The notes: a model not told the origin generated them from the sequence alone. A stretch of 64,000 bases of DNA from Acidobacteriota bacterium (GCA_019244185.1 JAFATB010000023.1:32001-96000), one strand, 5' to 3'; shown: positions 4,407-17,208, counted from the stretch's first letter. Numbers and translations are program-made.

Positions 4407-5207
4407 TTAGAAGGCGATGCCGGGCATCAGCAACGGCTCGATGTCGCGTCCGAAGAACAACATGACGAGCGCCGCAAGTCCGAGAAAAACGCCGAAGGGC
4501 AATTCCGCCTTCATGCCCTTCGCGCTGCGCGCCGCGACGGTGATGCCGATGACCGCGCCGGAGACGGACGCGAGCAGTAGCACGGGAAACAAGGCCTGCC
4601 ATCCGAGGATCGCGCCGAGCATCGCCATCATCTTCACGTCGCCGAGTCCCATGCCTTCGATCTTCTGCACGAGCTTGTAGGCGAGCGCGATGGCGAGAAT
4701 GCCGCCCGCACCGATGAGCGCGCCGAGAATCGACTCGCGCAACGTCGAAGCGAGCGCGAGCTCCGGATGCAACGCGCCGAGATGCAAAGCGCCGATCGCC
4801 AGACCGATGGCGACGCCCGGAAGGTCGATCACGTCGGGGAGAATCTGAATGTCGAGGTCGATGTAGATGAGCGCGATGAGCATCGACACGACGGCCGCGA
4901 CGAGCAGAAACGCGGGCGAGAGTCCCGTGCGCTGAAAGATGGCGAGATAGAACAGCGCGTTAGCGAGCTCGACTAGCGGATAGCGCGCGCCGATCGGCTC
5001 ATGACACTCGCGGCAGCGTCCGCGGAGCCAGAGGTAGCTGACGATCGGGATGTTGTCGTACGGCCGGATCGGCGTCGCGCAATGCGGGCAGCGGCTCGGC
5101 GGAAAGACGATCGATTCCTCGCGCGGATAGCGATGGATGACGACGTTGAGGAAGCTGCCAAAGATCGCCCCAAGAGCGAACGCCACAACCGAAAAGAACA
5201 AACCCAT
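4407..5207 (-). CDS. pilD: Prepilin peptidase / N-methyltransferase (A24)
   Basis: GSFLNVVIHRYP, CPHC...CREC zinc motifs, GMGLGDVK, LPFGVFL. Confidence 0.95.
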   Translation of the reverse strand: MGLFFSVVAFALGAIFGSFLNVVIHRYPREESIVFPPSRCPHCATPIRPYDNIPIVSYLWLRGRCRECHEPIGARYPLVELANALFYLAIFQRTGLSPAFLLVAAVVSMLIALIYIDLDIQILPDVIDLPGVAIGLAIGALHLGALHPELALASTLRESILGALIGAGGILAIALAYKLVQKIEGMGLGDVKMMAMLGAILGWQALFPVLLLASVSGAVIGITVAARSAKGMKAELPFGVFLGLAALVMLFFGRDIEPLLMPGIAF

Positions 5208-5407: not shown

Positions 5408-5413
5408 GGCCGG

Positions 5414-5508
5414 CGGAGGCGTGTCGGAATCGAACCAACCTTTCGACGCTTCCGCGCCGAAACAACGGTTTTGAAGACCGCGGGAGCCACCAGACCCCAT
5501 TCGCCTCC
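5414..5508 (-). tRNA. selC: tRNA-Sec (UCA)
   Basis: GGAGGCGAATGGGGTCTGGTGGCTCCCGCGGTCTTCAAAACCG...GGTTCGATTCC...CGCCTCCG. UCA anticodon, long variable arm, extended D-stem, ~95 nt. Followed by CCG rather than CCA. Confidence 0.95.
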
Positions 5509-5582
5509 CGGTTTCCGGGCTGGCGACGATACCTGAAACGCGGCTCGCGCGTCGATGAGACCTGCTGCGCTCGATCGGTCGG

Positions 5583-6516
5583 GTGGTGTTGGCGACGGTA
5601 GGTGCGGGGGTCGTGGCGTTTCTCGTGTTCGCGGCGGTGTTACGCCAGCCGGTGCTCTCCGCGCCGCGGTATGGAGGTGCGCGTGCGAGCGCGGAGGTGC
5701 TTCGTCAACACGTTGACTTTCTGGCGAAGAGCGTGTTGCCGCGGAGTGCGGCGCATCCGGAGAACCTCGATCGCGCGGCGGCGTACATCGCGGACGCGTT
5801 TCGACGCGCGGGTGCGGAGGTCGTGGAGCAACCGTTCCGCGCGCGCGGACGCGTGTCCCGCAACGTCATCGCGCGGTTCGGACCGCGCGATGCGCGGCAG
5901 CCGCTGCTCGTGGTCGGCGCGCACTACGACGCGTTCGGCGAGACGGGCGCGCTGCCCGGCGCCGACGACAACGCGAGCGGCACCGCGGGTCTCCTCGAGC
6001 TCGCCCGCATCCTCCGCGACTCCAACGTGCACGCGCCCGTGGAGCTCGTCGCCTTCACGACGGAAGAGCCGCCGTTCTTCGGCTCGGAGGAGATGGGAAG
6101 CGCGGTCCACGCCGCGTCGCTTGCGGGACGACCGGTGCGCGGCATGATCAGTCTGGAGATGATCGGCGTCTTCTCTGGCGAGCAGACGTGGCCATCGCCG
6201 CTCTTCGCGTGGCTCTACACCGATCGGAGCGACTTCATCGCCGTCGCCGGCGGCTGGTCGGATCGCGCGCTTGCGCGTCAGGTGAAGCGCGGCATCCGCG
6301 GCGTGGGCGGCGTCGACGTCTACTCGTTCAGCGGTGCGCGAGAACTGTCCGACGCTTCCGACCAGCGCAGCCACTGGGCGCGCGGCTGGACGGCGGTCAT
6401 CGTCACCGACACCGAGTACCTGCGCAATCCGCGCTACCACACGAACCGCGACACCGCGGAGACGCTCGACTACGCGTTGATGGCGCGCGTTGTCGACGGC
6501 GTCGCGAACGCGGTCA

Positions 6517-6536
<20 letters not shown>
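5583..6536 (+). CDS. M28 family metallopeptidase
   Basis: VGAHYD, GADDNASG, TTEEPP and SDQ motifs; N-terminal hydrophobic anchor. Confidence 0.9.
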
Positions 6537-6939
<403 letters not shown>

Positions 6940-6947
6940 GTCGCCTC

Positions 6948-7394
6948 CTACTGCCCGCCGCCGGCCATCTGCCTGCCCGCCATCTGGTTCTCGGTGAGGA
7001 TTGCCACGCCGCGGAACTCCGCCGCGTTCGCCGCGCGCATCACCGTGCGGATCTTCCCGAAGTTAATGCGCTTGTCCGCTTTGAGCAGCACCGCGCGCGT
7101 CGGGTCCTTCTGATATTCGGCTCGCAGATACGTGTCGAGCTGTTTGTCGGGAATCCAGTTCTGGCCGACGAAGACCGTGCCGTCCGACTTCACGGAGATG
7201 ATCAGATCGCTCGGCTGCCCCGGCTTCTTCTCGGCGTGCGGACCCGCGGGCAGCAACACGTCGACGCCCTGCTGCAGCATGGGCGTGACGACCATAAAGA
7301 TGATGAGCAGCACGAGGCAGACGTCGACGAGCGGCGTGACGTTGATCTCGCTCCTGACTTCGTCGGGGCTTCCGCCGCCGGCTCCGAATGCCAT
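6948..7394 (-). CDS. ExbD/TolR biopolymer transport protein
   Basis: SEINVTPLVDVCLVLLIIFMVVTP. Confidence 0.93.
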   Translation of the reverse strand: MAFGAGGGSPDEVRSEINVTPLVDVCLVLLIIFMVVTPMLQQGVDVLLPAGPHAEKKPGQPSDLIISVKSDGTVFVGQNWIPDKQLDTYLRAEYQKDPTRAVLLKADKRINFGKIRTVMRAANAAEFRGVAILTENQMAGRQMAGGGQ

Positions 7395-7403
7395 CGCTCG
7401 CTC

Positions 7404-8117
7404 CTACGTCGTGGCCCGCGCCCGCGCGCGCGCTTCGTTCTTGATGAAGTAGTCGATCAGCTGCGACGAGGAGTTCGACATCTCGACCTGGAATCGCTCG
7501 ACCTTGTTGAGGAAGTAGTTGTACATCCACACCGCGGGCACGGCGACGAAGAGGCCGAGCGCGGTCGTCGCGAGCGCTTCCGCGATGCCGGCCGACACGG
7601 CGCCAAGACCGCCCGAGCCGGAGATGGCCATGCCGCGGAACGCGTTGATGATGCCGATGACGGTGCCGAAGAGACCGACGAACGGCGCGGTCGTCGAGAT
7701 CGTGGCGAGGTTGCCGAGGCCTTTCTTCATCTCCGCCGTCGTCATCAGCGTCTCACGCTCGATCGCCCTCTTTCCCGACTCGACGATGTCGAAGTCCTCG
7801 GGGAGCTCCTGCGACGACTGATACTGAAACTCCGTGAGGCCCGCCGACAGCACGCGCGCGAGGTGGCTGTGGCGGAAGCGGCGGTCCTTCGTGAAGTTGA
7901 TCGCCTGATCGAGCTTGTGATCGCGCAGCAGAGGCGTGACGCCGAGGGCGACCTGCAGCGACTCTTTCTTCGCGCGCTGGAAGCGCCACAGACGCTCGAC
8001 CGCGATCGTGAGCGACCAGATCGACATGAGGAGCAAGACCGACGCGACGCCCTTGCCCAGCAGCGTCATCGACTGCCACATGCCCAAGATACTGAAACTG
8101 GCGTCCATCCCTTCCAT
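7404..8117 (-). CDS. MotA/TolQ/ExbB proton channel protein
   Basis: LATISTTAPFVGLFGTV, GIAEALATTALGL. Start reassigned to the ATG after a GAGGAG RBS. Confidence 0.93.
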   Translation of the reverse strand: MEGMDASFSILGMWQSMTLLGKGVASVLLLMSIWSLTIAVERLWRFQRAKKESLQVALGVTPLLRDHKLDQAINFTKDRRFRHSHLARVLSAGLTEFQYQSSQELPEDFDIVESGKRAIERETLMTTAEMKKGLGNLATISTTAPFVGLFGTVIGIINAFRGMAISGSGGLGAVSAGIAEALATTALGLFVAVPAVWMYNYFLNKVERFQVEMSNSSSQLIDYFIKNEARARARATT

Positions 8118-8134
8118 GCTGCACGTCTCCTCTG

Positions 8135-8923
8135 CTATTCGATTTTGAAGTTGATCGTGAGGTTGTAATACACCGGCACCGCCTGTCCGTTGAGCGTGCC
8201 CGGTCTGAACTTCCACTGCCGCAGCGCGTTGAGCGCCGTTTCATCGAGCCCCATCCCAAGACTCTTGAGGATGCGCGCCTCGGTCACGTTGCCGTTGCGA
8301 TCGATGACCGCCTCGATGATCACGAATCCCTGCACGCGCGCACGCCGCGCGACGTCCGTATACAACGGATCTACGCGTTTGACGATCACCGGCGCCTTGA
8401 CGTTCCCTCCGACGCGCACCGGGACGTCGCCGGTGCCGCCGACCTGGCCGCCCAACTGCCCGCCGAGCTGACCGCCGACCACGCCGCCGACGACACCACC
8501 CACCACGCCACCGACGACGCCACCTTCGACGCCGCCGACCACGCCGCCTTCCACGCCGCCGGTCGTGTCGGTGTCGGCGGAGGTCTCGGGGACGTCGGGC
8601 ACGTCCTGCGGGACTTCGGTCGGCTGCCGGAACGTCGGCTGCTTCGGCGTCTCGTGCGGCGTCTCGACTTTCGGTTTCGGATGCGAGGCGCCCGACGCGG
8701 GGGCGGGCGGCGGCGGGGGTGGAGGCGGCGGTGGGGGCGCGGAGGTGACGATGAACGCCGCGATCGGTTTCTCGACGGTCTCGGGATGCTCGTGAACGTA
8801 CATCCCCGCCGCCACGACGGCGCCGACGATGCCGAGGTGAATGACCGCGGAAATCACGGCGGTGATCCACCCGCCCTTCTTCTTGTCTTTCCCCGCGGAT
8901 TCGATGAGCACATCGTCGAACAT
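8135..8923 (-). CDS. tonB: Energy transducer TonB
   Basis: N-terminal TM with SAVIH, poly-Pro, GGVEGGVVGG repeats, C-terminal TonB domain (ALRQWKFRPG). Start at MFDDVLIES. Confidence 0.92.
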   Translation of the reverse strand: MFDDVLIESAGKDKKKGGWITAVISAVIHLGIVGAVVAAGMYVHEHPETVEKPIAAFIVTSAPPPPPPPPPPPAPASGASHPKPKVETPHETPKQPTFRQPTEVPQDVPDVPETSADTDTTGGVEGGVVGGVEGGVVGGVVGGVVGGVVGGQLGGQLGGQVGGTGDVPVRVGGNVKAPVIVKRVDPLYTDVARRARVQGFVIIEAVIDRNGNVTEARILKSLGMGLDETALNALRQWKFRPGTLNGQAVPVYYNLTINFKIE

Positions 8924-8958
8924 CGCGAATCCCCTTTGTTTCGAGGACAACGGCCTGT

Positions 8959-8973
8959 GCTGAAGTAGTGCCA
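8959..8973 (-). promoter_or_regulatory. Possible sigma54 -24/-12 promoter of the tonB-exbBDD operon
   Basis: TGGCACTACTTCAGC fits GG-N10-GC with a perfect TGGCAC. Confidence 0.5.
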
Positions 8974-9024
8974 AACGGTTCGACACCGCCCGCTCGCGGG
9001 GAGAAACCGGCGCCGGCGTTGCCG

Positions 9025-9750
9025 TTACGGGCGGTTCGCCGCCCGCAGCAAGGCGAGGAAGCGCTGCGCGTCGCGCACGCGCGGGACGTTGTTGAACATG
9101 ACGTAGGTCTCGGGCGTCCGCGGCAGCCGCGCGATGAGCGTCCGCAGCTCGTCGTCCGTGTAGACGTGATACGCGTTCCCGATGCCGTGCAGCCGCCAGT
9201 AGGTGAGCGGCTGCTCGATCGCGTCGCGGTCGAACGGATCGACGACATGCGTCAGCGCGAGCTCGCCGCAGAGTTCCGCGATCAGCTCCTGCGGCCACGG
9301 CCCGCGCGGCTCCCACAGGAACCGCACGCCGTCCGGACGCTCGACGTTCGTAAAGAAGCGTCGCAGGTTTACGACGTTCGCGTCTTCCGCGCGAAAACTC
9401 GCCGGACATTGAAAGAGAATCGCCGTCGCGCGCAGGATCCGCGCCGCCTCGACGGTCGAGTCCCACGCGCGCCGCAGAATGGGCGTCCATTGAAAGCCGC
9501 CGCATTGTGCGCGCTCGTCGTCATTGAGCGGCGTGCGCAGACGCCGATAAGTGCGGCTTGACGAGCGATGCGTAATGAGCTGCCAAGCCTTGATCGTGAA
9601 TTCGAACCCTTCCGGCGCCTGCTCCCGCCACCGGAGCATGGTGCGCGGCGCGGGCGGCTCATAAAACGTCTGCTGCACTTCGACGAGTGGGAAGGTCTCG
9701 AAGTAGTCGCGGATGTTCATGGTGAAGCCGCAGAGGCCGACTTTGATCAT
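9025..9750 (-). CDS. DUF72 domain protein
   Basis: YFETFPLVEVQQTFY, FEFTIKAWQLITH, LFQCPASF, YVMFNN. Confidence 0.9.
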   Translation of the reverse strand: MIKVGLCGFTMNIRDYFETFPLVEVQQTFYEPPAPRTMLRWREQAPEGFEFTIKAWQLITHRSSSRTYRRLRTPLNDDERAQCGGFQWTPILRRAWDSTVEAARILRATAILFQCPASFRAEDANVVNLRRFFTNVERPDGVRFLWEPRGPWPQELIAELCGELALTHVVDPFDRDAIEQPLTYWRLHGIGNAYHVYTDDELRTLIARLPRTPETYVMFNNVPRVRDAQRFLALLRAANRP

Positions 9751-9809
9751 GCGCAGCGTTCAGGGAGCAAGAAGGCCGCCCATCAACAGCGCGCGCGGCG
9801 CGCAGTCGG

Positions 9810-9845
9810 AAAAACGAAAAGCGCCGGTCATGCCTGACCGGCGCT
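9810..9845 (-). terminator. Intrinsic terminator after tRNA-Ala
   Basis: AGCGCCGGTCA-GGCA-TGACCGGCGCT followed by TTTCGTTTTT. Confidence 0.85.
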
Positions 9846-9862
9846 GCATCGTCTTCGGGAAT

Positions 9863-9939
9863 TGGTGGAGCCGATGAGGATCGAACTCACGACCTCCTGA
9901 ATGCCATTCAGGCGCTCTCCCAAACTGAGCTACGGCCCC
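9863..9939 (-). tRNA. tRNA-Ala (GGC)
   Basis: GGGGCCGTAGCTCAGTTTGGGAGAGCGCCTGAATGGCATTCAGG...GTTCGATC...GGCTCCACCA. Confidence 0.97.
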
Positions 9940-10017
9940 ACGTTCTCGTCGCGCGACCGAGGCGCGAAGAGCAACGCCGCTAACGCGGCGGCACCTGAAA
10001 AATTTCAGGGCGGGCGC

Positions 10018-10047
10018 ATTCTACGGGAGTGCGTTAGCATTCGGCAA
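10018..10047 (-). promoter_or_regulatory. sigma70-type promoter of tRNA-Ala
   Basis: TTGCCG-N18-TAGAAT followed by a GC-rich discriminator. Confidence 0.65.
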
Positions 10048-10221
10048 TGCGCAGGGGAAAGCCGAAGTTCGGTCGCCAGCGATCGGCCAGCGGAGCGTTC
10101 TCGCTCTCCCGTTCCCTCCCCGCGCTCAAGCTGCCGCGCTCCGCGGCGGCCGCGTCCGGTGCCCGCCCGAAGCCGCGCATCGGGAAGCCCTCACCGGCCG
10201 GCGGTGTTAGGGGCGGCCGGA

Positions 10222-10500
10222 ATGGATGAACAGGAACCGTTGCACCCGGCCATCCGCGGTCTGAAGACCGTCTGCCGCTGCAACAACATCAAATACCGCA
10301 CGATCGAGCGGGCCATCCGCGAGGGAGCGCACACGCTGACGCAGGTCGCGAACCGCACCACCGCCACGATGGGCGAGTGCGGCGGCTCCTGCACGCCGGA
10401 CGTTCAGGCCATGCTCGACGAGCTGGCCCCCGCGTATACGCAACTCCCGAAAGCCGCCCCGGCGGCAAATCCGGATGCATGGTGGGTACGGAAGAAATGA
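10222..10500 (+). CDS. BFD-like [2Fe-2S]-binding protein
   Basis: VCRCNNI...ATMGECGGSC. Start reassigned because the longer ORF overlaps the tRNA. Confidence 0.85.
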   Translation: MDEQEPLHPAIRGLKTVCRCNNIKYRTIERAIREGAHTLTQVANRTTATMGECGGSCTPDVQAMLDELAPAYTQLPKAAPAANPDAWWVRKK

Positions 10501-10841
10501 CGAAAACTCTCGAGGTCTACCTCAAGCCTTCCTGAACGAGCTGCCGCAAGGCGGTGGCCGACCTGGAAGGTCGGGGATACGAACTGGTGAAGCACAACCT
10601 CGCGAACGACCGCCCGAGCCGCGAGCTCCTCGCGCGCCTCATCGACGAGCACGGACTCGACTCCGTGATGAACGCGCGCAGCCCCGCCTTCAAAGCCCGC
10701 AACCTCGGCGAGCGGAAGCTGGACAAGGCGGAAGCGATCGCGCTGATGCTCGAGGATCCGAACCTCATCCGGAGGCCGCTCGTCCTCGGCAAGCGCCGCG
10801 TCGTCTTCGGTCACAAGCCGGAGGAGTACGACGGCCTGTGA
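10497..10841 (+). CDS. ArsC/Spx-family selenoprotein (UxxC), Sec TGA at 10533-10535
   Basis: ATG overlaps the upstream stop (ATGA). MTKTLEVYLKPS-U-TSCRKA is in frame with the downstream ...MLEDPNLIRRPLV... and matches the family PSCTSCRKA motif. Confidence 0.9.
10558..10574 (+). promoter_or_regulatory. Candidate SECIS hairpin
   Basis: CCGACCT-GGA-AGGTCGG. The loop starts with G 29 nt after the UGA. A second hairpin lies at 10540-10558. Confidence 0.6.
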
Positions 10842-11110
10842 CGATGATTACGCCGTCGGCGATGGCCATCGCCACGATCACGGTGATGCTCTGGATCGTC
10901 TGGAGCGACACGATCCGCGCGAAGCGGCCCGCGCCGATCCTCTACGCGGTGCGCGTGGCGCTGTATCTCATCGTCACCGGGCTCTTGATCCTGAACCTCG
11001 TGCGCTACCCGCGGCTGTACAGCAGCGGCGCGCGCGCCGTTACCATCGTGGCCGCTTTGACCGGCCTCGTCGGTGCAGTGTATTTCGCACGGAGGCTCGT
11101 AAAGCGTTAG
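10838..11110 (+). CDS. Small 3-TM membrane protein, hypothetical
   Basis: GTGA overlap with the upstream stop (alternative ATG at 10844); three hydrophobic segments. Confidence 0.75.
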   Translation: MTMITPSAMAIATITVMLWIVWSDTIRAKRPAPILYAVRVALYLIVTGLLILNLVRYPRLYSSGARAVTIVAALTGLVGAVYFARRLVKR

Positions 11111-11154
11111 TTGTGTGGAAATGGAAACCTTTCCGAGTCTTAGTTCCGTATCAG

Positions 11155-11183
11155 TAGACAGTGCGGAAAAAATGCACTATGAT
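11155..11183 (+). promoter_or_regulatory. sigma70 promoter
   Basis: TAGACA-N17-TATGAT; predicted +1 near 11190. Confidence 0.75.
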
Positions 11184-11189
11184 GCTTCT

Positions 11190-11323
11190 GGGTTCGGTGA
11201 GGGTTGGCAGCTCTCCGAAGCGGATCTGACGAAGTCGCGGGGCCTGCGAATCTCTCTCTCTCGATCTCCCACGACGATACGGCTACCCACAAGCCGTCCT
11301 AGCGTCGATCCTCGGCCGGACCC
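11190..11323 (+). ncRNA. Putative structured small RNA, family unassigned (6S-like possible)
   Basis: 5' GGGTTCGGT-GAGGGTTGGC pairs with 3' GTCGATCCTC-G-GCCGGACCC. Three internal hairpins. Has its own promoter and terminator. Confidence 0.7.
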
Positions 11324-11343
11324 ACTTTTTTGCTGATGATTCG

Positions 11344-11371
11344 GAGCCGCGATTCTCGCGGCTCTTTTTTT
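11344..11371 (+). terminator. Intrinsic terminator
   Basis: GAGCCGCGA-TTC-TCGCGGCTC followed by T7. Confidence 0.88.
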
Positions 11372-11420
11372 CCTCCACGGAGCGCGGCTCCTGTCCGTTT
11401 TGCGACAATCCCCCCGTTTC

Positions 11421-13766
11421 ATGCCGCTTCTCCTTCATTCACTCGCCGCGCTCGCGCTCGTCGGTCTCGCGCATCGCTTCGTGCGCCCGCTCTCGCGCGG
11501 CGCGGCGCTCGTCCTCTTCGCGCTGCCGTTCGTCATCGCCGGCTACGCGCTTCTGACCTCGCGCGTCCTCGCGCCGGTCGACCTCGCGTATCAGACCGTG
11601 CCGCTCAACTGGATGAAGGAGACGTACGGCGTCAGCGACGTGAGCACCGGACTGCACAGCGACGTGCTGTCGCAGTTCATCCCGTGGCGCGCGGCCGTGC
11701 GCGACTCGCTCGCACGCGGCGAGTGGGGCCTCTGGAACCGCTACGCCTTCGCGGGCGACATCCTGCTCGCGGGCGAGCAGCCGGCGGTCTTCTCGCCGAT
11801 CACGCTCCTCGCGTGTCTGCTGCCCGCGGCGCTGAGCTTCACCTTCACCGGCGCGCTGACGCTCTTCATCGCCGCGCTCTGCGCGTTCCTCCTCGCGCGC
11901 GAACTCGATTGCGGCGAGCCGGCGGCGCTCGTCGCCGCGGCGTCGTGGTCGCTCGCGACCTCGCTCGTCGTCTTCGTACTCGTGCCGCTCGGCGCGACGT
12001 GGGCGTGGGCGCCGCTGCTGTTCGTGAGCGTCCAGCGTCTCGTGCGCGCGCCGCGCATCGCCTCCGCCGCGCTGCTCGCGTTCACGTTCACTGCATTGCT
12101 CGCGGCCGCGCATCTCGAATCCGTGTTGCTCATCGTCGCATTGGGCGTCGCGTACGCGCTGCTCGAGCTCGCGCGGCGGCCGTCGGTACGCGCGGTCGCG
12201 CTCGCGGCGGGCGCGGGCGTCGTCGCGCTGCTCGTTTCGGCCGTGCATCTCCTGCCGTTCTTCGAGGCGCTGCCGTGGACGATGGAGTACGCGACGCGCG
12301 ACCTGTTCCGCGACTCGGCGCGCGGCGTGCCGCTGCCCGACGCCGCGCTGCGGATGCTGATGACGTTCTTCCCGTACCTCAACGGACGGCCGCCGGTGAC
12401 GTCGTTCATGAACGGCGCGATCGGCAGCATTGCCACCGCGCTCGCGCTGTACGCGCTGTGGCGCGTGCGCTCGCGCGCGACGTGGTTCTTCGGCGCGACG
12501 TTCCTCGCCTGTCTCGTCATCGCGTCGGAATGGCGTCCCGTCGCGACGCTGCTCGGGCGTGTGCCGCTCTTCGACATCGCCATCTTCGACCGCATGGCCT
12601 TTGGCGCCGCGCTATCGCTGGCCGTGCTCGCCGCGCTCGGCGCCGAAGCGCTCGCGCGGCGCGGCGGCGATCGCGCGGCGGGCGCGACGCTCGCGGCGTG
12701 GTTCGTCGTCGTCGCCGCCGGCAACTACGCGTTGCTGCACGCGGCGTCCGTTCCGCGCGGTCCGGTGAAATTCGGCGAGCACGTTGTCGCCGCAGAGCTC
12801 GTGCCGCTCGCGTTCGCAGCGGCGCTGTTGTTTCGCAAACGTGCCGCGCTGCCCGCGCTGCTCGCGCTCATCATCGTGCAGCGCTGGCTCGCGGTCAGCG
12901 ACGCGCAGAAGTCGTTTCCGCGTCGCGCTGCCTATCCGCCGATCCCGATCCTCGAACCGCTGCGCGCGATCCGCACGCCGTTCCGCATCGTCGGCCACGG
13001 CAACGCGCTCATCCCCGGCACGGCCACGCTGTACGGACTCGAAGACGCGCGCGGCTACTCGGCGATGACGCTGCTGCGCTACCGCGAAACGTACGGCCTG
13101 TGGTGCGTCGAACAGCCGGTGTGGTTCAACCGCGTCGACGATCTCTCGCGGCCGTTCCTCTCATTCCTCAACGTCCGCTACGCCATCACGTGGGACCGCG
13201 CGGTGCCGCCGCCGGGATGGACGGAAGTGGCGCGGCAGCGCGGCGCGATCCTGCTCGAGAACCACAACGCGCTCGATCGCGCCTTCGTGCCGCGCGGCGT
13301 GCACGTCGGCGCGAGCACGAACGTCACGCTGATGGAGATGGCGCTCGCCACCGACTTTGCCGACCGCGCGTGGATCGAGGCGAACGTTCCCGCGCCGTAC
13401 GACTCCGCGAACGGGCCGGGGCGGCTCACGATCGCTAACGCGCGCCTCGGCTACGCGATCGACGCGGACATGCAGAACGACGGCTGGATCGTGACGTCGA
13501 TCGCGGCGTGGCCCGGCTGGCGCGCGTACGTCGACGGCCGCCGCGTCGACACGAACATCGCCAATCATGCGTTCGTCTCGGTGCGCGTCCCGCGCGGACA
13601 TCACCGCGTCGCGCTGCGCTACTTTCCGGACGGCTTCGCGGTGGGAAGGACGATCAGCGCGGTGACGCTCGCGCTGATCGTCCTCGCGTCGCTACTGTTT
13701 CATCGCCGCAAGCCGCTTCTCGAGGCTGGCGATGCGGCCGTCGCTGCGCTGCCCCTCGGGGAGTGA
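11421..13766 (+). CDS. YfhO-family membrane protein (GT-C glycosyltransferase-like)
   Basis: QFIPWR...GEWGLWNRYAFAG, many TM helices, FLNVRY, C-terminal WPGWRAYVDG...VRVPRGHHRVALRY. Confidence 0.88.
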   Translation: MPLLLHSLAALALVGLAHRFVRPLSRGAALVLFALPFVIAGYALLTSRVLAPVDLAYQTVPLNWMKETYGVSDVSTGLHSDVLSQFIPWRAAVRDSLARGEWGLWNRYAFAGDILLAGEQPAVFSPITLLACLLPAALSFTFTGALTLFIAALCAFLLARELDCGEPAALVAAASWSLATSLVVFVLVPLGATWAWAPLLFVSVQRLVRAPRIASAALLAFTFTALLAAAHLESVLLIVALGVAYALLELARRPSVRAVALAAGAGVVALLVSAVHLLPFFEALPWTMEYATRDLFRDSARGVPLPDAALRMLMTFFPYLNGRPPVTSFMNGAIGSIATALALYALWRVRSRATWFFGATFLACLVIASEWRPVATLLGRVPLFDIAIFDRMAFGAALSLAVLAALGAEALARRGGDRAAGATLAAWFVVVAAGNYALLHAASVPRGPVKFGEHVVAAELVPLAFAAALLFRKRAALPALLALIIVQRWLAVSDAQKSFPRRAAYPPIPILEPLRAIRTPFRIVGHGNALIPGTATLYGLEDARGYSAMTLLRYRETYGLWCVEQPVWFNRVDDLSRPFLSFLNVRYAITWDRAVPPPGWTEVARQRGAILLENHNALDRAFVPRGVHVGASTNVTLMEMALATDFADRAWIEANVPAPYDSANGPGRLTIANARLGYAIDADMQNDGWIVTSIAAWPGWRAYVDGRRVDTNIANHAFVSVRVPRGHHRVALRYFPDGFAVGRTISAVTLALIVLASLLFHRRKPLLEAGDAAVAALPLGE

Positions 13767-15005
13767 CTTCGCGTAGTCGATGGCCTGCTGCATCGTCGCG
13801 CGCGCGGCGGCGGTGTCGCCTTTCGCCGTGTAGATGTCGGCGCGCGCGGTGAGCACGACCAGCTTGCGCGGACCGTAGACGCGCGCGAGCGCGCGGTCGG
13901 ACGCGGCCAGCGCCTTGTCGTACTCCTTCATCGCGTTGTAGGCGAGGGCCAGGCGCGCCGGCGGGTTGTAGTCGTCCGGGAAATCGCGCTGCGACTGCTC
14001 GAGCATCGGGATCGCCTTTTCCGGCGTGCCGAGGTCGAGGTAGGCGGCGAGGCGGTGCGAGTCGTAGACCGCGCGCTGTTCGGCGGTCTTCGCCGCGGCG
14101 GCGGACTTCTCGAGGAACGCCGCCCATTCGCCGCGCAGCTTCTTCGCGCCCGCTTCGTCTTTCGCGTCGTCGCGCGCATCGATGAGCGACATGTACAGAC
14201 CGGAGCGGTCGTCGCCGGAGAGCGTCAGCGTGTGATCGTCGAAGACCTCGCGCGTGTCCTTCTCCAGCGTCGCGATCCACTGCGCGCGCTTCGGATTCTT
14301 CTCGTCGACTTCGATCGCGCACGAGAGCCCGCTCGCCGCGACGCCGGCCGCGGACGACGTGCCCTTCACGCGCGGATACAGATCGAGCGCGCGCGTCGTG
14401 CAGCGTTCCGCGTCGCGGGCCATGCTCAGCGAGAAGAGCAGCGACTCCGCGGTGCGGCCGTAGCCGTTCCATCCCTTCGGCGCATTGCCGAGGGCCTGGT
14501 CGAAGAGCTTCGCGGCCTCGGCGTCCTTCCCTGCGGAGGCGAGCGCGTTCGCGCGGGCGAGAAGCTGATCGGCGGACGAGAGCGACTTCGCGCGATACGT
14601 CTTCTCCGCGTCGTCGAGCATCTTGCGCAACTGCGGCACGGTCGCGCCGCCGACGTAACGCATCGTCACCGCGTCACGCTTCGCGTCGAGCACGAGCAGC
14701 GTCGGCAGCGCCGGGATCGGATACTTTTTGAGGAACGACGCGCTCTTCGCGTCTTCCGTGTTGAGGCTGAGCCAGACGAACCGTCCGGCGTACCGTTCGA
14801 GCGACGCGTCCGTGAGCACGTACGCGCGCATCGAGCGGCAGGTGTGTCACCACGGTGCCCACGCCTCGACGAAGATCGGCAGATTCTTCGTCTTCGCGCG
14901 GGACACCGCCGTGGCGTAGTCGTTCTCGATGAAAGGGAGAACTTCTTTCGCATGCGCGGCGACGCTCGCCAGGAGCACCGCCGCGGCCATGAGCATGTTT
15001 CGCAT
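13692..15005 (-). CDS. Exported thioredoxin-like selenoprotein (UxxC) with C-terminal TPR repeats, Sec TGA at 14849-14847
   Basis: MRNMLMAAAVLLASVAAHA signal peptide, then IENDYATAVSRAKTKNLPIFVEAWAPW-U-HTCRSM in frame with the track ORF 13692..14831. cis-Pro motif ALPTLLVLD; helical TPR-like C-terminus. Confidence 0.9.
14805..14826 (-). promoter_or_regulatory. Candidate SECIS hairpin
   Basis: CGCGT-A-CGT-GCTC-ACG-G-ACGCG. The loop starts with G 29 nt after the UGA. Confidence 0.55.
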
Positions 15006-15028: not shown

Positions 15029-17122
15029 TCACATCGGACCGGGGGTGACCCAGCGACGTAACCATTCGTCCACCTCGCGGTAAAACACGCGCGAGTTTTC
15101 GGCGTTGAGAATCCAGTGGTTCTCCTCGGGCCAGACCAGCAGTCGCGACGGCACGCGCAGCCGCTGCAGCAGCGACCACGCTTCCAGCGTGTTGTTCAGC
15201 GGCACGCGGAAGTCGTGCTCGCCGACCGACAGCAGGATCGGCGTCTTGAACTGCGCGGCGAAACGCGCGGGACTCTGCGTGCGCCACACCTCGCCCTGCT
15301 CCCACACCGGACCGTTGTTCATCAGCTCGCGGCCGTAGATCGTGTCCGACGTCGCCCACTGCGTTTCGAGATTGATGAGCCCCGCGTGCGCGACGAGCGC
15401 CTTGAAGCGATCGCCCGACCACGCTTCGAGCGCGTACGTGAGATGCCCGCCGTAGCTCGCGCCGCCGGCGACCTGCCGCGTCGCGTCGATGAACGGATAG
15501 CGTTTGATCGCCTCGTCCGCCGCTTCCATCAGCTCGTCCGCGGGACCGCGCAGCGGATCGCCCTGAATGAGCTGGCCGAACTGCTCGCCGAAGCCGGTTG
15601 AGCCGCTGTAGTTCGTCATCAGCATCACGTACCCCGGCTTCGCGAGCAGGTGATAGTTCCAGCGCAGCGAGATCGCGTCGCGCCACATGTTCGCGGCGCC
15701 GCCGTGGATGAGCACGAACAGCGGGTACTTCTTCGACGCATCGAAGTTCGCCGGCAGGACGATCATGTTGTGGATGCGCCGGCCGCGCTTCGACGTGAAC
15801 CAGAAGTGCTGCGGCGGCTGCCAGTCGATCGTCTTCGCCTGCTCGACGTTGAACGACGTGAGGTTCGTGTGCTTCTTCGCGTTCAGGTCGACGCGCACGA
15901 TCTCGATCGGATTGACGGACGAGCCCCACTGCGCGACGACGACCGGCGCGCGTTCGGCGACGCGTAAGGACGTGTAGACGCCGCGCTGCGGATCGACCGC
16001 GAGCTGCGCGTCGCCGCCGGCCGCGGGCACCGAGTAGATCTTCACCAGCCCCGCGTCTTCGGCCGTGAAGTAGATCGTGCGGCCGTCGCTGGTGACGCCG
16101 AAGTCGTCGACGGAGCGGTCGGTTTTCGCGACGACGCGCTCGTTCTTCATCGACGGCCAGTCGAACGCAACGAGGCGGTTGAGGTTGTAGACCTTGCCGT
16201 TGTTCGGATTGAACGTCGCGAAAAGCGTCTTTCCGTCGGGACTGAAGTCCGGGCTGCCGTAGCCGCCGTTCGCGGTCGTGAGCTTCTCCGGCTCGCCGCC
16301 GTTCGCCGAGACTCGATAGAGATCGAACGAGACTTCCGCGTATGCGCCGGTGTTGCGCGTGCTGGTCGCGGCGAAGACGAGCCACTGTCCGTCGGGCGAC
16401 CACGCCGCGTCGAGCGACTCGCGTCCCTCGCCGCCGCCCGTGCCGCCGAAGCCGGCGCTCGCGACGAGCTTCGTGCCGGCGAGCACGTCCTTCGCCGGCG
16501 CGCCGGGCGTGAGCGACTGCACGAAGACGTGCGCCTGTTTCTCGTCGAGCCAGCGATCCCACGCGCGCACGGGGAAGCTGTCGTAGACGCGCACTTTGTC
16601 CTTACGGTCTTTCTCCGCTTTCGCTGCCTTCTTGTTGGCGTCGTCGTCGAGCGCGCCGGGATAGACGGTGCTGACGAACGAGATCGCGTTGCCGTCGGGG
16701 CGGAAGTGCGGGCGGCTCGCGCCGGTGGAGACATTCGTCACGCGCAACGCCTCGCCGCCGCCGGCGAGATCGAGGACGTAGATCTGTGCGGCGTCGTCCG
16801 TGTCGCGTTTCGCGGCGAAGGCGATGCGGCGGCTGTCGGACGACCACGTCACGTCGCTCTCGCCGGCCTTCGTGTTCGTGAGGCGGCGCGGCTGCGCGCT
16901 GCCGTCGGCGGGGACGAGCCACAGATCGCTGAGCTGATCTTTCTCGTCGTACGCGGGCTCCGTGAGCGAGAAGACGACCCACTTGCCGTCGGGGCTCAGC
17001 GCCGGCGCGCCGATGCGTTTCATCAGCCACATCGTCTCGTGCGTGAGCGGCACGCCCGCGGCGAACGCGGCGGCGGAGAAGAGAAGGAGGAGTGCGAGAG
17101 GGAGAAGCCGGACTCGTCTCAT
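15029..17122 (-). CDS. S9 family peptidase (prolyl oligopeptidase/acylaminoacyl peptidase)
   Basis: Signal peptide, SPDG beta-propeller repeats, IHGG, GASYGG, DFRVP, EENHW. Confidence 0.93.
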   Translation of the reverse strand: MRRVRLLPLALLLLFSAAAFAAGVPLTHETMWLMKRIGAPALSPDGKWVVFSLTEPAYDEKDQLSDLWLVPADGSAQPRRLTNTKAGESDVTWSSDSRRIAFAAKRDTDDAAQIYVLDLAGGGEALRVTNVSTGASRPHFRPDGNAISFVSTVYPGALDDDANKKAAKAEKDRKDKVRVYDSFPVRAWDRWLDEKQAHVFVQSLTPGAPAKDVLAGTKLVASAGFGGTGGGEGRESLDAAWSPDGQWLVFAATSTRNTGAYAEVSFDLYRVSANGGEPEKLTTANGGYGSPDFSPDGKTLFATFNPNNGKVYNLNRLVAFDWPSMKNERVVAKTDRSVDDFGVTSDGRTIYFTAEDAGLVKIYSVPAAGGDAQLAVDPQRGVYTSLRVAERAPVVVAQWGSSVNPIEIVRVDLNAKKHTNLTSFNVEQAKTIDWQPPQHFWFTSKRGRRIHNMIVLPANFDASKKYPLFVLIHGGAANMWRDAISLRWNYHLLAKPGYVMLMTNYSGSTGFGEQFGQLIQGDPLRGPADELMEAADEAIKRYPFIDATRQVAGGASYGGHLTYALEAWSGDRFKALVAHAGLINLETQWATSDTIYGRELMNNGPVWEQGEVWRTQSPARFAAQFKTPILLSVGEHDFRVPLNNTLEAWSLLQRLRVPSRLLVWPEENHWILNAENSRVFYREVDEWLRRWVTPGPM

Positions 17123-17208
17123 GCAGTTCATTCGGGAACTTGACAACGGTGCGTTCGGCGGCAACGATTCCTGGCCTCTGCCGGCATTGCGACGTTCGAG
17201 GAGGAACG

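Follow-up and report, generated by a model that had tools for sequence, protein, structure and literature searches.

Two convergent genes with in-frame UGA codons as predicted UxxC selenoprotein genes of an Acidobacteriota bacterium

We analyzed two genes, here called A and B, in a 64,000-nucleotide stretch of DNA from an Acidobacteriota bacterium (GCA_019244185.1, JAFATB010000023.1:32001-96000), hereafter the window. Each of the two is interrupted by an in-frame TGA at the first Cys position of a CxxC redox motif, and the evidence presented below makes it very probable that both UGAs are selenocysteine (Sec, U) codons, read by the standard bacterial selenocysteine pathway. Gene A would then encode a 114-amino acid (aa) selenoprotein of the ArsC/Spx family, and gene B a 437-aa secreted selenoprotein in which a thioredoxin-like domain is joined to tetratricopeptide repeats (TPR). 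The window corresponds to C26:32001-96000 of the genome G000, which comprises 5.30 Mb in 26 contigs and is rated 98.9% complete; positions given without a contig are those of the window.

The genome has the bacterial Sec-decoding trait, with selC, SelA, SelB and SelD all scoring above their cut-offs. A first-pass annotation, made from the sequence alone, had noticed a tRNA with a UCA anticodon in the window. ARAGORN calls this gene, selC (5412..5508, minus strand, anticodon tca), as tRNA-SeC, and the Rfam tRNA-Sec model RF01852 agrees, matching 5415-5508 on the minus strand with 71.1 bits against a gathering score of 47. Profile searches of the genome retrieved SelA (TIGR00474, 479.5 bits; cut-off 267.9), SelB (TIGR00475, 378.1 bits; cut-off 242.25) and SelD (TIGR00476, 371.8 bits; cut-off 125), the last with one in-frame TGA within the match. 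SelD is a selenoprotein itself, with its own Sec codon in the context GG-U-ACK (G000:C6:611614-612546, minus strand). None of selA, selB and selD is located in the window, as the first-pass annotation had already stated, and the search of the genome that it had proposed found all three on other contigs. Of 61 genomes sampled within the same genus, family, order or class, 57 gave a tRNA-Sec match of at least 61 bits; G001, G018 and G034 gave only matches of about 48-50 bits, which resemble other long-arm tRNAs, and G051 gave one of 53 bits. The database proteins closest to A and B carry source labels of Thermoanaerobaculia or Acidobacteria metagenome bins.

In this pathway SelD would make selenophosphate, SelA would turn Ser-tRNA-Sec, the product of selC, into Sec-tRNA-Sec, and SelB would bring Sec-tRNA-Sec to the in-frame UGA on binding an mRNA hairpin just downstream. 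The candidate hairpins for SelB are found at nucleotides (nt) +10 to +59 in gene B and, in gene A, as GACCU-GGA-AGGUC with its loop at nt 33.

Gene A (10497..10841, plus strand) reads from the ATG at 10497 as MTKTLEVYLKPS-U-TSC-RKA, with the putative Sec codon at 10533..10535 in the motif U13-T-S-C16, and terminates at an ordinary TGA (10839-10841). Its N-terminus, MTK..LKP(S/T)U, is present in all 36 aligned read-through orthologues, and its ATG shares bases with the stop codon of the gene before it (ATGA). Gene B (13692..15005, minus strand) runs from the ATG at 15005 to a stop other than TGA at 13694-13692, with the putative Sec codon at 14849-14847 in the context WAPW-U-HTC, giving the motif W-U53-H-T-C56; its first 52 codons encode a signal-peptide-like N-terminus followed by the first strand and helix of a thioredoxin fold. 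The positions of the two TGAs (10533 on the plus and 14849 on the minus strand) had been read correctly in the first-pass annotation, and the upstream starts that it considered credible are borne out by these N-termini.

The strongest evidence for recoding is the pairing of TGA with Cys codons across homologues, for which each read-through protein was searched against 60 relatives and G000 itself. Gene A gave 37 strong matches (E < 1e-30), 36 with exactly one TGA and one (G016) with none, and 35 genomes had a full-length match to gene B, in nearly every case with a single TGA. At the motif column, U occupies 36 of 38 sequences in the A alignment and Cys (TGT/TGC) the other two, namely the orthologue in G016 (73% identity) and a homologue in G044 (32% identity). 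In the B alignment the corresponding counts are 35 of 37 for U and two for Cys (TGC), in G016 and G046. With G002, G024 and G042, three genomes flagged as unpublished, left out, TGA is found in 34/36 (A) and 32/34 (B). Because G016 and G046 retain tRNA-Sec (69.6 and 61.2 bits), their Cys codons are gene-specific replacements and not a consequence of trait loss. Full-length database homologues of A with Cys at the site include P0004, P0005 and P0007. A TGA kept in frame at both sites, with conserved protein on either side of it, is by this comparison more than chance would produce.

Several observations on individual genomes accompany these counts. On contig G016:C261 (loci L028 and L068) both A and B carry Cys despite the presence of tRNA-Sec, which makes this genome a natural Sec-to-Cys pair for both proteins. 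The gene B matches of G032 and G026 also contain a TAG, and in G028 (G028:C3:4780163-4781449) the B orthologue is split into three pieces in different frames, one with a second TGA, indicating a frameshift or an assembly problem. No strong B match was obtained in G014, G018, G020, G021 and G035 (best E about 1e-8 to 1e-10), most of which have A; several of these assemblies are fragmented. In G014 the peptidase gene that otherwise adjoins B lies near A (L015), as if B had been lost.

More distant relatives of gene B were sought among 1.84 billion cluster representatives, which yielded 5485 matches at E ≤ 0.001, of which 473 were at E ≤ 1e-30. The alignment of the best 149 representatives, from 50%-identity clusters, has Cys at the Sec position in 92, Ser in one and Asp in one, while 55 do not cover it. 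Of these 55, 46 begin at query residues 58-60, with a Met just past the motif, and a start directly after the motif in 46/149 is the pattern that would be expected of truncated Sec forms.

Truncation is also evident in the database entries of the window itself, in agreement with the expectation of the first-pass annotation that standard pipelines would cut both genes short: A is deposited as P0003, a 95-aa protein starting VADLEG, and B as P0123, of 379 aa. Among the 120 best matches, most A homologues cover 74-83% of the query, most of the close ones being roughly 95-aa fragments, and for B the majority reach 84-87% coverage (about 378 aa) and are named 'tetratricopeptide repeat protein'; 11 of the 120 listed B matches are 432-466 aa long and have thioredoxin Pfam domains. 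Taken at face value, these short forms (P0003, P0123 and most close homologues), together with the fact that TGA is the commonest stop in G000, would favour the view that the two TGAs are real stops, that the true genes are open reading frames (ORFs) of 95 and 379 aa and that the codons upstream are non-coding, leader peptides or pseudogene remnants. Yet those upstream codons are conserved as protein in 36 (A) and 35 (B) genomes and carry the catalytic motif, and in B they also cover the predicted signal peptide and the beginning of the thioredoxin fold, so that the truncated product would be a TPR protein with neither redox domain nor export signal. Moreover, where the TGA is absent the codon is one for Cys and not a random sense codon. 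We therefore regard termination at these sites as extremely improbable. Both subfamilies are systematically mis-annotated in public databases.

It is likewise highly improbable that the UGAs are read through as Trp, Gly or Cys, whether by a variant code, a suppressor tRNA or near-cognate decoding. Misinsertion of Cys at Sec codons under selenium shortage is known in other systems, and the entry for one 120-aa homologue of A, P0037, shows Trp in place of Sec (KPSWTSCRK), presumably through use of a translation table in which TGA encodes Trp. Against such decoding, TGA ends 2990 of the 4674 long ORFs in G000 and also stops the bfd-like gene upstream of A, gene A itself, the S9 peptidase gene next to B and the gene for DsbD; as TGA is the main stop and terminates neighbouring genes, a reassigned code is excluded. 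The aligned residue is, in addition, Cys in 92 of the 94 distant B representatives that cover the site and never Trp or Gly, and the genome encodes the complete Sec machinery, with a hairpin following the UGA. A nonsense mutation or assembly error is excluded by the conservation of the TGAs across genomes. The contigs of runs X1-X3, which may be the window's own source, show 0 differences over both TGAs, and in the diverged strain X5, from another study, 10533-10535 is unchanged among the 25 listed of 26 differences in the contig. The comparisons with homologues and with other assemblies, the machinery and the truncated entries thus all bear out the proposal that both genes are recoded.

We then considered the RNA downstream of each UGA, counting hairpin positions in nt from its U. 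Gene B has a hairpin resembling a selenocysteine insertion sequence (SECIS) at nt +10 to +59 (14791..14840, minus strand), with an apical loop at about nt 33-39, which was identified by folding, pairing and covariation. Its minimum free energy is -27.6 kcal/mol, with a z-score of -2.67 against dinucleotide shuffles. The 35 Sec-form orthologues can form 92.1% of the pairs of the named structure, compared with 28-45% when the partner columns are slid, and its lower stem of 10 base pairs is 96.3% paired; the pair 27-46 covaries, being U-A in 12 sequences and C-G in 11. Against 1000 synonymous shuffles, which keep the protein and draw codons from genome usage, the Sec forms have z-scores of -0.12 to -4.64, about half of them below -2.5 and 32/35 at or below -1.25, and the two Cys forms have z-scores of -0.57 and -0.90. 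The Cys form in G016 (-16.3 kcal/mol, z -0.57) has an altered 3' side of the lower stem and folds weakly.

In gene A, the candidate apical hairpin GACCU-GGA-AGGUC (10560..10572, plus strand; loop at nt 33-35) is suggested by pairing and by frozen synonymous sites. It is 96.4% paired across 33 distinct sequences, with two of the five pairs changed on both sides, and the hairpin with a GGA loop is predicted in 33/36 Sec forms. The codons that form it are nearly invariant (CTG 33/34, GAA 35/35, GGT 33/33), while GGT accounts for 6.3% of Gly codons and GAA for 30% of Glu codons in the genome. Codon entropy at conserved residues is lower over codons +1 to +19 than further downstream in both genes (0.55 vs 1.0 in A, 0.5 vs 0.7 in B). 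A second, less conserved hairpin of gene A, found by folding, lies at 10541..10557 (plus strand).

Some of these results weigh against the hairpins as SelB signals. The copies in G000 itself are weak: that of B has a z-score of -1.25, with 108 of 1000 synonymous shuffles folding as well, and that of A has a z-score of +0.19, with 555 of 1000 folding at least as well. The A hairpin was not recovered in the three most distant Sec orthologues (G036, G038 and G039). As the Cys form of G016 retains it, the D-L-E-G peptide must account for part of this hairpin. The consensus folds of RNAalifold departed from the named structures, with another inner helix for B and only a five-pair stem near the first hairpin for A, because the inner helix shifts register between orthologues. 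Given the weak energies in G000, support for the hairpins comes from the set of orthologues and not from the window alone. On that set, gene B carries a predicted SECIS-like element, and the candidate hairpin of gene A is likely to be one as well.

The arrangement is comparable to SECIS/SelB recoding in Escherichia coli fdhF, which likewise has an in-frame UGA, a hairpin starting within about 10 nt of it and an apical loop about 30 nt downstream. The apical loop begins with G in both genes of G000 (GGA in A, GCUC in B); the rules on loop G and spacing are those of the bSECISearch model. In contrast to this likeness in layout, the sequences are unrelated to that of fdhF, the A hairpin has only 5-7 base pairs and the SECIS elements here are predicted from sequence.

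What the two proteins do is much less certain than the assignment of their Sec codons. Gene A passes the Pfam ArsC model (PF03960, 69.8 bits; gathering score 24) and, narrowly, the NCBIfam model of the Spx/MgsR subfamily (TIGR01617, 80.6 bits; cut-off 75.05). It falls below the model of the glutaredoxin-dependent arsenate reductase arsC (TIGR00014, 41.4 bits against 106.05) and that of the ArsC-like selenoproteins (NF041106, ArsC_rel_Se_1, 20.3 bits against 85). With the latter it shares PF03960, a small single-domain protein, an N-terminal UxxC with Sec in first position and the existence of Cys homologues, but it lies outside NF041106 and falls in the TIGR01617 subfamily instead. Its six best solved relatives are all Spx, the Firmicutes redox-switch regulator (top hit 3l78, E 1.6e-14; also 7f75 and 1z3e). 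The Spx motif PSCTSCRKA aligns residue for residue with gene A, placing U13 at the first Cys of the Spx CxxC, and the RRP motif is conserved and aligned too.

In 35 of the 37 genomes that encode an A orthologue, A is immediately preceded by a gene for a BFD-like [2Fe-2S]-binding protein of about 92 aa (10222..10500, plus strand; Pfam Fer2_BFD, 56.8 bits), the start of which was chosen from orthologue N-termini as M108 of a longer ORF. Its residues C18, C20, C53 and C57 are invariant in 30 orthologues. Gene A encodes a cytoplasmic thioredoxin-fold protein, in which Sec would replace the first Cys of an N-terminal CxxC, and is translationally coupled to this [2Fe-2S] protein. It may act as a selenol/thiol oxidoreductase or redox switch, cycling through a Sec13-Cys16 selenenylsulfide.

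Instead of serving as an oxidoreductase together with the BFD-like protein, gene A could be an Spx-type regulator that binds the C-terminal domain of the RNA polymerase alpha subunit, with U13-x-x-C16 as its redox switch. The TIGR01617 match and the alignment with the six solved Spx proteins, PSCTSCRKA and RRP included, argue for such a role. However, A scores below all three Spx-specific NCBIfam models (NF002459, 59.8 bits against 123; NF009210, 44.9 against 159; NF009885, 39.4 against 152), is shorter than Spx (114 aa against 131-132 aa) with no C-terminal tail, and carries Sec where Spx has its first Cys. In its conserved setting, A is coupled in translation to a [2Fe-2S] protein, a context not known for Spx. 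We consider a regulator of this kind possible but unlikely, and favour the oxidoreductase or redox switch paired with the BFD-like protein.

Gene B matches the Pfam models Thioredoxin_7 (PF13899, 37.2 bits against 27), Thioredoxin (PF00085, 30.1 against 23.5) and TPR_12 (PF13424, 39.5 against 30.1), along with several other TPR models, and is just under the cut-off of Thioredoxin_2. It was not among the 10 matches of a PF00085 scan of the whole genome, although it does match when the read-through protein itself is scanned against Pfam. It is below the cut-offs for DsbD (NF001419, 33.4/330) and for the selenoprotein TsoB (NF045694, 24.7/805), only its thioredoxin domain matching. An AlphaFold model built with 150 sequences has a mean predicted local distance difference test (pLDDT) score of 95.9 and a predicted template modelling score of 0.92; a thioredoxin fold occupies about residues 25-135 and helical repeats occupy 144-435, with low confidence in residues 1-20 only. 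The signal peptide is predicted by eye and from the low pLDDT of these 20 residues. Among solved structures, those closest in sequence are of a putative disulphide isomerase (2kuc), thioredoxins and the C-terminal domain of DsbD. The thioredoxin fold with W-U-x-x-C is shared with known UxxC selenoproteins of that fold, to which gene B adds a TPR superhelix of about 300 aa and a predicted signal peptide.

In a Foldseek search with the model of B, TPR proteins dominate the matches, and among the top ones only E. coli YbbN (3qou, rank 2) and its Salmonella homologue (3qdn, rank 8) combine thioredoxin and TPR domains. Like B, this 'chaperedoxin' (YbbN/CnoX) has an N-terminal thioredoxin domain and C-terminal TPR repeats. 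YbbN is cytoplasmic and is not known to carry a CxxC. It differs further from B in sequence (13-15% identity), and the TPR part of B is far longer and accompanied by a predicted signal peptide and a predicted redox-active UxxC. The structural match to 3qou is weak, with a poor superposition despite the same domain order (E 1.4e-5; template modelling scores 0.21/0.32; root-mean-square deviation 25), and YbbN is absent among the 60 best Protein Data Bank sequence matches of B.

Gene B may be exported through its signal peptide, with the thioredoxin domain (W-U-H-T-C) joined to the long TPR superhelix; the TPR part would hold clients and Sec53 would attack their disulfides or sulfenic acids. We infer from this architecture a putative reductase/holdase of the cell envelope, which would resemble a periplasmic, Sec-using counterpart of YbbN/CnoX. 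About 400 kb away, the same contig encodes a full-length DsbD whose thioredoxin domain contains CIPC (G000:C26:450752-452710, plus strand), a candidate electron donor for an exported B.

The two genes are convergent (3' to 3') and were found on one contig in 23 genomes, in 22 of which the gap between them is 0.54-4.9 kb (2.85 kb in the window; 10.8 kb in G036). The gap is occupied in the window, like the longer gaps of some relatives, by a gene for a YfhO-like membrane protein (11400..13766, plus strand; Pfam YfhO, 79.1 bits), a variable insert that stands outside the selenoprotein pair and is absent where A and B are about 540-720 bp apart. An ORF of 73 codons downstream of A (11115-11336, plus strand) has no Pfam family; tblastn finds it with 48-68% identity in the same place in about 16 relatives, which would fit a gene as well as conserved untranslated sequence. 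B is directly preceded on its own strand by a gene for an S9 (prolyl-oligopeptidase family) peptidase (15029..17164, minus strand; Peptidase_S9 146.9 bits, PD40 85.7 bits), the stop of which is separated from the ATG of B by 23 nt; this gene adjoins B in the loci of 28 relatives. The conserved unit is therefore the BFD-like gene followed by A, facing the S9 peptidase gene followed by B, and selC shares the region loosely.

The first-pass annotation had described the whole as a selenocysteine neighbourhood, and this holds for A and B, which are a conserved convergent pair, while the link to the tRNA was overstated. In the window, selC lies 5.0 kb from A and 8.2 kb from B, and in G014 the distance to A is 4.5 kb. 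With at least six selenoprotein genes in 5.3 Mb, and A and B counted as one unit, a position within 10 kb of selC would be expected by chance in about 2% of cases. These figures would suit a functional 'selenocysteine island', selected for co-regulation or co-transfer. However, in the 10 genomes with tRNA-Sec and A on one contig, the distances are 4.5, 5.0, 15.5, 26.5, 28.8, 32.2, 34.1, 74.8, 90.3 and 97.0 kb, which excludes an operon and points to a shared chromosomal region and not a unit. Unrelated genes also intervene, and selA, selB, selD and the remaining selenoprotein genes are distributed among C4, C6, C7, C14 and C26. We consider selection for such an island very unlikely, and retain the convergent pair as the conserved feature. 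None of the genes around selC is related to selenium use: the tRNA is flanked by genes for an M28 peptidase (5583..6536, plus strand) and a prepilin peptidase (4407..5207, minus strand), and between it and A are also an ExbB/MotA-family gene and a gene with a TonB C-terminal domain (together 7404..9505, minus strand) and a tRNA-Ala(GGC) (9863..9939, minus strand).

Together with A, B and SelD, at least six selenoprotein genes were found in G000. A peroxiredoxin of the Bcp/PrxQ type (G000:C26:167211-167582, plus strand), outside the window at about 135 kb in window coordinates, has FYPKADTPG-U-T, with an AhpC-TSA match of 126 bits spanning U. A rhodanese-domain protein (G000:C7:394824-395465, plus strand) has Y-C-T-U-P in its active-site loop, spanned by a Rhodanese match of 68.3 bits, and is of the same form as the CxU rhodanese selenoprotein of reviews. 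A molybdopterin oxidoreductase match (G000:C4:575948-577477, plus strand) contains one TGA (ARI-U-HSSTV) and is probably a selenoprotein alpha subunit of formate dehydrogenase (FdhA). A genome census of in-frame TGAs by codon-usage score was insensitive, missing selD, and noisy, and was used only to supply four candidates, which were then verified independently. Five of its candidates were rejected, namely the end of IleRS together with the next gene, a Cons_hypoth95/PhoH junction and three without a family. A thioredoxin-like match with one TGA (G000:C26:452075-452710) was also rejected, being DsbD ending at its ordinary TGA stop.

Thioredoxin-fold UxxC proteins are the commonest kind of selenoprotein, and both they and ArsC-like UxxC proteins are already catalogued, just as the recoding mechanism is textbook knowledge. 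ArsC-like, thioredoxin and thiol:disulfide interchange selenoproteins appear in the tables of Zhang et al. (2006; PMC1794560), where Acidobacteria are represented by 4 selenoproteins in 3 families in the part consulted. Table 1 of a 2022 review (PMC9312934) lists an 'Arsenate reductase' with UxxS, an 'Arsenate reductase-like protein' with UxxC, a thioredoxin with UxxC and a thiol:disulfide interchange protein (Thioredoxin_2) with UxxC; the only Thioredoxin_7 selenoprotein in that table is a PDZ protein with CxxU, not UxxC. The accessible text of a 2026 review (PMC13188914) ties the ArsC-like UxxC family to NF041106. 'Spx' does not occur in the parts of the 2022 and 2026 review texts that were searched, nor 'TIGR01617' in that of 2026, though supplementary tables may list the subfamily. 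Similarly, 'TPR' and 'tetratricopeptide' are absent from the portions of the selenoprotein texts searched, both reviews included, and such a subfamily may be listed in supplementary tables, either those of the reviews or those of deep-Sep (PMC12013277). Our literature search found no text pairing 'selenoprotein' with 'Thermoanaerobaculia'.

Against this background, what appears to be new is modest: within the ArsC superfamily, a predicted Sec form that belongs to the Spx/MgsR branch and not to the ArsC-like Sec family already described; a widespread, putatively secreted thioredoxin-TPR selenoprotein, hidden as a TPR protein; and apparent natural Sec/Cys pairs within one genus (G016 and the rest). 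These pairs are ready-made material for assessing the advantage of Sec over its Cys counterpart, both in a CxxC switch and in a thioredoxin destined for export. We can also picture, as a speculative and rather doubtful combination, that A is a Sec-containing Spx-type switch on RNA polymerase whose [2Fe-2S] partner sets or reads its redox state, and that B represents an abundant family of secreted Sec 'chaperedoxins' of soil bacteria. If this were true, A would be the first transcription regulator known to be a selenoprotein, its sensing bond being a selenenylsulfide instead of the disulfide, and the family of B would now be hidden in databases as plain TPR proteins.

For the lineage, the results reveal tRNA-Sec nearly throughout the sampled class and at least six selenoprotein genes in G000. 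About a third of the B cluster representatives at 50% identity (46/149) start just past the motif, and where the redox capacity or selenium demand of soil and rhizosphere bacteria is inferred from such annotations, both A and B are missed.

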